28,677 bases of DNA from an uncultured Terrimonas sp. (GTDB taxonomy: Bacteria; Bacteroidota; Bacteroidia; Chitinophagales; Chitinophagaceae), in the NCBI GenBank assembly GCA_964528095.1, contig CAZGSG010000029.1:1-28677 (forward strand), read 5' to 3'. Within the stretch, counting starts at the first letter, position 1. The number at the start of each line of letters is the position of its first letter. The notes beneath the pieces were generated by a model. That model was not told the origin of the DNA. It made no database searches and was given only the letters and a program-made list of their open reading frames with translations. The position numbers and the translations under genes were made by a program. This document shows, piece by piece, positions 5,866 through 5,960 of the stretch.

Positions 5866-5960
5866 GTTCCCACCATAATCTGTAGGTCAGGGGTTCAATT
5901 CCTCTTCCCGGTTTACCGGGATAGCTCAATGGTTAGAGCAACAGACAAACATGTGGGTTC
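5866..5960 (+). ncRNA. Candidate permuted tRNA-like module. Order: T arm (agggg-ttcaatt-cctct, 5889-5905), then an acceptor-like hairpin tcccggt-tt-accggga (5906-5921), then a canonical D arm gctc-aatggtta-gagc (5924-5939). It is closed by a flanking helix tctgt/acaga extending to cccac[c]at/atgtggg with a bulged C.
   Basis: The element order matches a tRNA circularly permuted at the anticodon stem, as described for bacterial Y-RNA-like (YrlA) tRNA mimics. The boundaries are approximate. Confidence 0.35.

Follow-up and report, generated by a model that had tools for sequence, protein, structure and literature searches.

A circularly permuted tRNA-like element near rtcB in a Terrimonas genome is one module of a larger conserved noncoding RNA

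Introduction

What might a tRNA-like element with its arms in permuted order be doing a short distance upstream of an RNA ligase gene? The question is raised by a stretch of 28,677 nucleotides (nt) from an uncultured Terrimonas sp. (Bacteroidota; Chitinophagaceae; contig CAZGSG010000029.1 of assembly GCA_964528095.1), here called the window. A first-pass annotation, made from the sequence alone, had flagged positions 5866-5960 of its + strand as a T arm followed by a closed acceptor hairpin and a D arm, and had viewed it as a self-contained RNA of 90-130 nt, closed by its own flanks and possibly of the YrlA type. Here, we report that the flagged element is not such a unit but module 1 of a conserved structured noncoding RNA of ~310 nt (~5750-6057, + strand). 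This RNA is made up of a four-helix 5' domain, two tandem circularly permuted tRNA-like domains, and a 3' H-type pseudoknot.

YrlA is a tRNA-mimic bacterial Y RNA that is bound by Ro60/Rsr, is encoded in rsr-yrlBA-rtcBA operons and is often found near rtcB; its genes lie on the same strand as rsr and within 4 kb of it. A GNCGAAN0-1G motif near its 5' end is the putative Rsr site. A second RNA that bears on the locus appears in the summary of Burroughs and Aravind (NAR 2016) given by Wang et al. (bioRxiv 10.1101/312249), in which a tRNA-like RNA next to Band-7 and RtcB, the 'b7a-tRNA', is predicted. The same summary states that YrlA occasionally adjoins Band-7 and that such RNAs have been proposed as ligation cofactors.

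Results

We gathered 80 genome loci via the Band-7 protein, and in 74 of these noncoding DNA matching window positions 5745-6076 lies just 5' of the Band-7 gene. The equivalents of 5872-6028 from the window and 63 other genomes were aligned, and the two-module structure was counted on this alignment, to which all counts out of 64 refer. The structure is paired in 95.3% of cells and 35 of its 39 pairs have changed on both sides. The number of compensatory cells (581, against 158 +/- 13 in shuffles) was not approached by chance, with 0 of 500 shuffles reaching the observed values, and slid controls were 37-47% paired. Conservation of the locus in related genomes with compensatory changes, which the first-pass annotation had named as a check, is therefore borne out.

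Module 1 spans 5879-5945 on the + strand and consists of a closing stem, variable loop, T arm, closed acceptor hairpin, U8-A9, and D arm (Table 1). The permuted order of T arm, acceptor hairpin and D arm had been recognised correctly, as reading of the sequence, alignment to YrlA and covariation across the 64 genomes all agree. Closure of the module by the flanks tctgt/acaga also proved right, since the closing stem covaries at every core position: its 4 core pairs are 94-100% paired, with both-side changes in all (pair counts CG 44/GC 9/UA 7; UA 48/CG 11; GC 42/UA 9/AU 8; UA 43/GC 9/CG 5), and it aligns with the YrlA stem at model positions 23-26/82-85. The extension of this stem that had been proposed, cccac[c]at/atgtggg, does not survive the comparison. 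Five of the seven pairs are found in no more than 43-62% of sequences and show no compensation, and the strands belong elsewhere: gtggg (5953-5957) pairs with cccac (5965-5969) in T arm 2, and 5866-5872 pairs with 5767-5773 in helix P2. The bounds 5866-5960 consequently cut across three structural units.

The tRNA tertiary positions of module 1 are kept as well. In the variable loop a G46-like G is present in 61 of 64 sequences and a pyrimidine (C/U) at position 48 in 63, and the Levitt R15-Y48 pair is G-C in 50 sequences and A-U in 7. T arm 1 has three covarying pairs and two invariant G-C pairs, with T54, C56 and A58 found in all 64 sequences and Psi55 in 62. The outer 4 pairs of acceptor hairpin 1 are 96.5% paired, each with compensatory changes, and D arm 1 is nearly invariant, its stem being 99.6% paired. 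U8 and A14 are present in 64/64, A9 and G19 in 63/64, and G18 in 60/64. Because covariation and tRNA tertiary positions are both kept across 64 genomes, module 1 is not a chance resemblance to tRNA. In a 1.7-kb search the Rfam YrlA model scored 34 bits (E 3.4e-5) on 5881-5946, its arms falling in this same order.

Could part of the element instead be an ordinary tRNA read in linear order? The Rfam tRNA model (RF00005) does match 5915-5977 at 32.1 bits, above its cut-off of 29, but it does so by re-using the D arm of module 1, borrowing T arm 2 and accepting 8 nt in place of the anticodon arm. A cloverleaf with an acceptor stem of 7 base pairs (bp) closed by the two ends and with an anticodon arm is not found at 5915-5977. 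The linear reading was rejected, as the 3' strand of hairpin 1 and the 5' strand of hairpin 2 pair with each other in 42-66% of cells, compared with 96-97% for the hairpins themselves. ARAGORN called no tRNA at the flagged element; the expectation that a standard tRNA scan would miss it thus holds for ARAGORN but fails for the Rfam model, whose above-threshold match is structurally wrong. A helix of the minimum free energy fold, 5847-5855 with 5936-5944, was not adopted either: it pairs in many sequences because both its sides are conserved, and it shows no compensation when the closing stem changes. A switch involving it seems unlikely.

Like the window match at 5915-5977, other tRNA-model matches straddle the modules above threshold (32-38 bits), at 2954-3015 and 3018-3088 in locus L001, 631-693 in L013, 269-329 in L076, and 3547-3610 in L017. 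Since the Rfam tRNA model scores above threshold across the modules, automatic annotation will call spurious tRNAs or pseudo-tRNAs here. Rfam 15 holds no family for the RNA, and its tRNA model mis-annotates pieces of it in several genomes.

Module 2 (5953-6022) shares with module 1 the T arm, closed acceptor hairpin and D arm, adds a complete anticodon stem-loop, and has its break in the variable loop. The outermost pair of acceptor hairpin 2 is a C-A mismatch in the window. In D arm 2 the three outer pairs are 100% paired, the third occurring as UA 42/GC 12/AU 5/CG 4, while the fourth is often unpaired (G-A in the window), which brings the helix to 92%. U8 is present in 62/64 sequences, A14 in 63/64, and the two Gs of the GG pair of positions in 63 and 59 of 64. 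The loop of the anticodon-like arm keeps U33 (53/64) and A38 (57/64) around three freely variable 'anticodon' positions. ARAGORN, which calls a tRNA in 0 of 64 sequences in genomic order, does so in 57 of 64 once the T arm and the 3' strand of the acceptor are placed after the anticodon arm in silico, and the anticodons obtained include Asn GUU, Leu NAG, Ile GAU, His, Tyr, Pro, Lys, and others. In addition, the base before T arm 2 and the base after A14 form a Levitt pair across the break (A-U 30, G-C 28, 6 exceptions). These un-permuted calls and the Levitt covariation across the break identify module 2 as a complete tRNA body permuted at the variable loop. With U8, A14, G18G19, T54-Psi55-C56, and A58 present in 59-64 of 64 sequences in both modules, each tRNA-like domain is predicted to take the tRNA L-shape.

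The 5' domain was examined with a covariation scan requiring stacked double changes, because conserved columns compatible with G-U pairing swamp simpler scans. All 7 pairs of P2, the helix that closes the domain, have compensatory changes (for example CG 20/UA 17/AU 10 and GC 26/AU 17/GU 12). The domain carries the near-invariant GUGCAG/UGUAUGCUGUUG. The tip of P4 (5829-5830/5835-5836, loop AGUA) varies as UA 45/CG 17 and its inner pair as AU 28-30/CG 13-14/GC 5, and a conserved GCUGUUG (5846-5852) directly follows the hairpin. The invariant G-U pairs of P4 place the RNA on the + strand.

For the 3' pseudoknot, pairing was tested per sequence; the MAFFT alignment had left its 3' strand out of register. 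The loop forms at least 4 contiguous Watson-Crick pairs with its own downstream sequence in 65 of 70 sequences, with a mean of 4.33 pairs versus 3.25 +/- 0.11 for mismatched partners, and covarying variants occur (CACC/GGUG, CAGC/GCUG, CAUC/GAUG, and CGCC/GGCG).

Conserved sequence also flanks the RNA. On its 5' side, the motif AGTTCTTTATAATATTG (5706-5722) is present in the window and in loci L014, L032, L025, L036, L056, and L027; it has no match to the sigma-70 consensus and may be a promoter or a processing signal. On its 3' side, 6066-6152 holds a semi-conserved hairpin region of the AAAGCCGG...CCGGC type, a strong hairpin at 6090-6121 that is variable in sequence, AT-rich, and without a U tract, and a conserved motif resembling CCGGUAAAcaCCUGCAGGCAGG at ~6131-6152. 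The transcript may thus be structured almost to the Band-7 start codon. A scan of the region for sigma-70 promoters and intrinsic terminators gave nothing useful; the host is a member of the Bacteroidota.

How widely is the RNA distributed? A covariance model of the two modules, R1, gives one match of at least 100 bits per locus, 5' of Band-7 and on the same strand, in 64 of the 80 genome loci besides the window (63 of Chitinophagaceae type and one from Chryseosolibacter). Three further loci score 82-86 bits and single-module variants 33-65 bits. The RNA is found 5' of Band-7 homologues in ~70 of the 80 loci; these ~70 genomes are from Bacteroidota and nearly all from Chitinophagaceae. Cultured carriers include Niastella caeni HX-16-21 (L020), Chitinophaga agrisoli (L070), Paraflavitalea pollutisoli (L043), and Lacibacter sediminis. 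In one locus (L023, ~3590-3700) the three arms of module 1 are absent and its closing stem is capped by a 7-nt loop (gctgt-ctggaaa-acagc), with module 2 retained. Other single-module variants are found in L030, L032, L046, L065, L070, and L079.

In 80 metagenome loci with more distant Band-7 homologues, R1 matches the + strand in ~56, nearly always 250-500 nt 5' of Band-7; five to seven of these have two modules and the others one. A rule-based detector of a T arm followed by a hairpin and a D arm found this order for 49% of T arms 5' of distant Band-7 genes versus 17% in tRNA arrays. It separated poorly, and the distant distribution was taken from the covariance model. Band-7 homologues of 33-61% identity are numerous and one large cluster is clostridial. 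Loci in Clostridia, whose relatives of the RNA are single-module, run in the order WYL, WCX, a gap of ~500 nt, Band-7, RtcB, and by eye the gap contains GGUGCAC...UGUGUAUGCC, a T arm, an acceptor-like hairpin, a D-like arm, and an analogous pseudoknot; the P4 motif GUGCA..UGUAUGC is present as well. The RNA therefore occupies a fixed position before Band-7/RtcB in two phyla, Bacteroidota and Firmicutes. In two loci of Firmicutes type (L133 and L150) the single module looks like module 1 and is closed by a flanking stem.

RtcB lies 3' of Band-7 in most loci, and nearly every Band-7/RtcB locus in Bacteroidota (mostly Chitinophagaceae) has on its 5' side a long tRNA array, on the same strand and with up to 14 genes (at ~1-3000 in loci L001-L066). 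Its recurrent order is Pro-Glu-Asp-Gln-His-Arg-Met-Ile-Val-Lys-Asn-Ser-Phe-Trp, followed by genes for an RNase H-like protein (PF04308) and an AAA ATPase. Synteny of the latter two is kept in most of the 80 loci and a WYL regulator is often present, and in many loci the RNA comes directly after the AAA gene within a long operon. R1 also gives cross-matches of 20-70 bits where tandem tRNA genes of the arrays adjoin, and it is plausible that the permuted modules arose from such junctions.

In the window itself (Table 1), the RNA lies 260 nt 5' of the Band-7 gene. The first-pass annotation rightly described an rtcB neighbourhood lacking a Ro60/TROVE gene: no TROVE/Ro60 domain was found by Pfam among the open reading frames (ORFs) scanned in the 28.7-kb window (all long ones and several short or antisense ones). 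It made no mention of Band-7, which lies directly 3' of the RNA and is the informative neighbour. Two antisense ORFs that cross the RNA region (5329-5643 and 5498-5929, - strand) have no Pfam match, and the remaining genes of the window, a capsule locus among them, are unrelated to the Band-7/RtcB island.

Table 1. Genes of the Band-7/RtcB island and structural units of the RNA, in window coordinates
Feature	Position	Strand	Basis or remark
Reduced tRNA array: Pro-like, Gln, His, Phe (4 tRNA or tRNA-like genes)	2279-2706	+	Rfam tRNA model and ARAGORN
AAA ATPase	2726-3802	+	Pfam
RNase H-like protein, PF04308	3824-4333	+	Pfam
WYL/WCX-domain transcription regulator, divergent from the RNA	4397-5419	-	Pfam PF13280 and PF25583
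Intergenic region of 900 nt, WYL/WCX gene to Band-7	5420-6319		
P1 hairpin CUUGCC-UGGC-GGCAAG, 5' edge of the RNA	5750-5765	+	GC 43/CG 11, UG 35/CG 15/UA 7
P2 long-range helix, closes the 5' domain	5767-5773 with 5866-5872	+	RNAalifold, 63 sequences
P2a helix	5787-5790 with 5850-5853	+	87-99% paired; GC 35/AU 16/GU 6, CG 52/UA 5/UG 4
P3 hairpin	5796-5819	+	96-100% paired; GC 46/AU 20, UA 32/CG 20/UG 13, GC 54/AU 13
P4 hairpin, near-invariant GUGCAG...CUGUAU	5821-5845	+	100% paired, including invariant G-U pairs
Module 1 closing stem (t)ctgt/acag(a)	5879-5883 with 5941-5945	+	Equivalent to anticodon-stem positions 39-43 (5' strand)
Module 1 variable-loop analogue AGGUC, positions 44-48	5884-5888	+	Standard class-I variable loop
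T arm 1, aGGGG-TTCAATT-CCTCt, 5 bp with UUCAAUU loop	5889-5905	+	100% paired
Acceptor-like hairpin 1, tcccgg-ttta-ccggga	5906-5921	+	Closed by a tetraloop
U8-A9 (TA, 5922-5923), D arm 1 GCTC-AATGGTTA-GAGC (5924-5939), A26	5922-5940	+	
D arm 1 as RNA, GCUC-AAUGGUUA-GAGC	within 5922-5940	+	
Linker between modules	5946-5952	+	Last base (5952) is position 48 of module 2
T arm 2, GUGGG-UUCGAAU-CCCAC	5953-5969	+	99.1% paired, 3 pairs covary
Acceptor-like hairpin 2	5970-5986	+	96.8% paired, 4 pairs covary
U8-G9, D arm 2 (tRNA-Leu-like GGCGGAAUUGGUAACGC), A26	5987-6005	+	
Anticodon-like arm, 5-bp stem with 7-nt loop CUCGGGA	6006-6022	+	98.1% paired, 5/5 pairs covary
H-type pseudoknot	6030-6057	+	Stem AGAAG/CUUCU, 6030-6034/6042-6046
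Pseudoknot loop CACC with GGUG	6037-6040 with 6054-6057	+	A-rich linker between
Band-7/SPFH 'slipin' protein	6320-7423	+	PF01145, E 1.2e-26
RtcB RNA ligase	7530-8987	+	PF01139, E 1.1e-81

The Band-7 protein has no obvious N-terminal membrane segment. A partial duplication is suggested by the likeness of residues ~7-40 to the beginning of the protein's own SPFH domain (~138-175), and a helix is predicted from ~282 to 347, after that domain. An AlphaFold2 model was of low confidence (mean predicted local distance difference test score 63) and was not used beyond secondary structure.

Some further features of the locus should be recorded. The first unit of the array (2279-2351, + strand) scores 50.9 bits with the Rfam tRNA model and is not called by ARAGORN; its anticodon loop CCUGGAA corresponds to Pro UGG with C replacing U at position 33, its D stem has a mismatch, and a Pro-like unit also stands first in the arrays of L012 and L016. 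Between the start of the WYL gene and the RNAs lies a palindrome, TGTGCAA-atacA-TTGCACA (5457-5475), which is kept in the other WYL-containing loci examined (L014, L006, and L032) and is a candidate operator for the WYL/WCX regulator.

The same intergenic region also contains a third tRNA-like RNA, element X (5504-5702, + strand), which is linear and unpermuted. Its 7-bp acceptor stem (CGCUCUU 5505-5511 with AAGAGCG 5692-5698) covaries in L006, L032, and L014, and it has U8-A9, a D arm (5514-5529), and a T arm (5675-5691), with a structured insertion of ~140 nt, including a covarying hairpin resembling a variable arm, in place of the anticodon arm. Rfam gives no family for element X, the one match being a tmRNA T-arm fragment (E 0.026). 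Relatives are found in L014, L006, and L032, where AGTTCTT, similar to AGTTCTTTATAATATTG, lies 5' of the element, and at 71-256 of L012 and 350-533 of L016, where it sits inside the tRNA array between the Pro-like tRNA and tRNA-Gln.

Discussion

To which class of RNA does this one belong? Like YrlA (RF02553), it presents a stem, variable region, T arm, closed acceptor-like hairpin, D arm, and stem in that order, it keeps the tRNA tertiary positions including a compensating Levitt pair (Chen et al. 2014), and it is encoded close to rtcB on the same strand. Module 1 follows the YrlA plan in that the anticodon stem is left open and formed by the flanks. The YrlA model also falls on module 1 in 13 of 13 sequences tested (the window and 12 homologous loci), at 32-45 bits in the homologous loci. 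We draw a distinction, however, between this shared arm order and membership of the YrlA family. The window RNA scores 34 bits against a gathering score of 69, with model positions 23-88 of 114 alone aligned, and neither window 5401-6320 nor 62 of the 63 homologous 5' domains contain the GNCGAAN0-1G motif. Moreover, the RNA lacks the long terminal stem and a nearby rsr, its partner gene being Band-7, and it has what YrlA does not: a doubled tRNA-like domain whose second copy carries a full anticodon arm, an extra covarying 5' domain, and a 3' pseudoknot. Of the earlier comparison with YrlA, the tRNA-like arm order stands and membership of the family does not.

The b7a-tRNA, as described by Wang et al., is likewise a predicted tRNA-like noncoding RNA encoded beside Band-7 and RtcB. 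That description, 'strongly resembling an authentic tRNA', sets it apart from the RNA reported here, in which the linear reading fails covariation and the conserved fold consists of one or two permuted modules set within a larger RNA. The best reading is that the locus RNA belongs to the predicted b7a-tRNA/YrlA-like class.

The functional set of this island is also described in Anabaena, where TrcR represses a tRNA L-array, rtcB, slipin and an AAA ATPase together and translation stress induces them (PMC8421152, PMC10272220). The set that is co-regulated in Anabaena is physically linked here, the regulator being an RHH protein there and a WYL/WCX protein here; a structured RNA 5' of the slipin gene receives no mention in the passages cited.

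In light of these comparisons, what might the role of the RNA be? The fold, strand, conservation and position of the RNA are shown directly. For its role we lean, with some reserve, towards a tRNA-mimic RNA subunit of a Band-7/RtcB tRNA-repair particle, as the parallel with Ro60 and its Y RNAs and the published proposal suggest. The source of the RNA would be the Band-7(slipin)-rtcB leader, or the long operon in loci that have no regulator gene in between. Its non-tRNA domains would anchor it to the SPFH oligomer, and RtcB, tRNA-processing enzymes, anticodon nucleases or other tRNA-recognising factors would be occupied or recruited by its two tRNA-shaped domains. In this way the RNA would act as a scaffold or a gate for the rejoining of tRNAs broken in their anticodon loops under translational stress or in the course of toxin or phage attack, with the tRNA array supplying spare tRNAs and the WYL regulator switching the system on. 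Against a particle subunit, module 1 is dispensable in some lineages, ~10 genome loci being single-module, and the RNA could act in cis, because it is always close to the Band-7 start (within ~250-500 nt) and no clear terminator lies between them.

A cis-acting leader, sensor or bait in the 5' untranslated region of Band-7-rtcB is the main alternative, possible although we would not call it probable. Binding of a tRNA-recognising factor, or cutting of the module 2 loop by an anticodon nuclease, would alter termination, stability or translation of the repair genes that follow, with the pseudoknot as the expression platform. The invariable placement on the same strand 250-500 nt 5' of Band-7, with further conserved sequence between, fits such a leader, and H-type pseudoknots with A-rich linkers are common as regulatory folds. 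A 7-nt loop that keeps U33 and A38 while its 'anticodon' mimics many tRNAs is also what would be expected of a shape-specific bait. However, no terminator/antiterminator or Shine-Dalgarno-sequestering pairing was found, the sole alternative helix (5847-5855/5936-5944) being without compensation; in many loci the RNA lies within a long operon after the AAA gene and hence is not always a leader; and YrlA, the closest known relative, is a trans-acting ribonucleoprotein RNA that is processed from an operon transcript. We give little credence to the RNA being a true Y RNA of the YrlA family whose Ro60/Rsr partner is encoded in another part of the genome. YrlA is its best non-tRNA Rfam match, with the same arm order, in the window and likewise in 12 related loci, and YrlA is often encoded near rtcB. 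The score is nevertheless half the gathering threshold with typically the tRNA-like core alone aligned, the Rsr motif is missing, and the conserved neighbour is Band-7, with no TROVE domain among the ORFs scanned in the window, whereas YrlA sits within 4 kb of rsr.

Permuted tRNA genes are established in Cyanidioschyzon merolae and other algae, where the 3' half is encoded before the 5' half, a short connector joins the acceptor ends, and the genes are matured into functional tRNAs with fixed anticodons. The likeness extends to the T arm and acceptor 3' strand lying upstream and to module 2 being a full tRNA once un-permuted; in the present RNA, by contrast, a tight hairpin loop serves as connector, the anticodon varies between relatives, and the modules lie inside a larger conserved RNA. 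That module 2 is a pre-tRNA of this sort, excised, joined at its ends by RtcB into a circular intermediate and then opened at the acceptor loop to give a functional tRNA, strikes us as very improbable. It has every tRNA arm, it is called as a tRNA in 57 of 64 sequences after un-permutation, and a ligase is encoded in the same unit, but acceptor stems of 4-7 bp with loops mostly of 3-7 nt leave little room for RNase P/Z, anticodon identity drifts among close relatives, the locus already has conventional tRNA genes, and the single-module forms of Firmicutes appear to lack a 7-nt anticodon loop. Scarcely credible, finally, is a functionless remnant, be it a decaying junction of tandem tRNAs or an ordinary tRNA or pseudo-tRNA. 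The above-threshold tRNA match at 5915-5977 and the cross-matches of R1 to tandem tRNA junctions would agree with it; against it stand the failure of linear pairing, the missing anticodon arm, the silence of ARAGORN, and the covariation of the closing helix and all arms, a mark of purifying selection across two phyla. A decayed junction with no conserved closing helix, which had been raised as the way the element might be explained away, is excluded for its present state.

A bolder elaboration, which we regard as rather doubtful, would make the RNA a sentinel and scaffold with two tRNA baits, one a headless tRNA body and the other a complete anticodon stem-loop, held by the Band-7 oligomer. 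The loop sequence would be retuned in each lineage to the tRNA species hit by local anticodon nucleases, and when the bait was cleaved or competed for, this would be sensed and RtcB would make the repair in situ, coupling nuclease attack to activation of the spare-tRNA/repair island. If this were true, it would be a previously undescribed RNA-based layer of decoy and sensing in tRNA-targeted conflict, and the 'b7a-tRNA' would be redefined as a permuted multi-domain RNA present at least in Bacteroidota and Firmicutes.

RtcB repair systems are widespread in bacteria, yet little is understood of the RNAs that serve them as cofactors: among the tRNA mimics YrlA alone has been characterised, and the RNA beside Band-7 has so far been a prediction. 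The architecture given here is backed by covariation and comprises two permuted tRNA domains, a conserved 5' domain, and a pseudoknot, which no Rfam model captures. It also links the RNA to long tRNA arrays, an AAA ATPase, an RNase H-like protein, and WYL regulators, a set whose counterpart in Anabaena is induced by translational stress. Which part of the RNA binds the SPFH protein, what its tRNA-shaped domains recruit, and what role a Y-like RNA may have in tRNA repair are questions that can now be tested in cultivable Chitinophagaceae.

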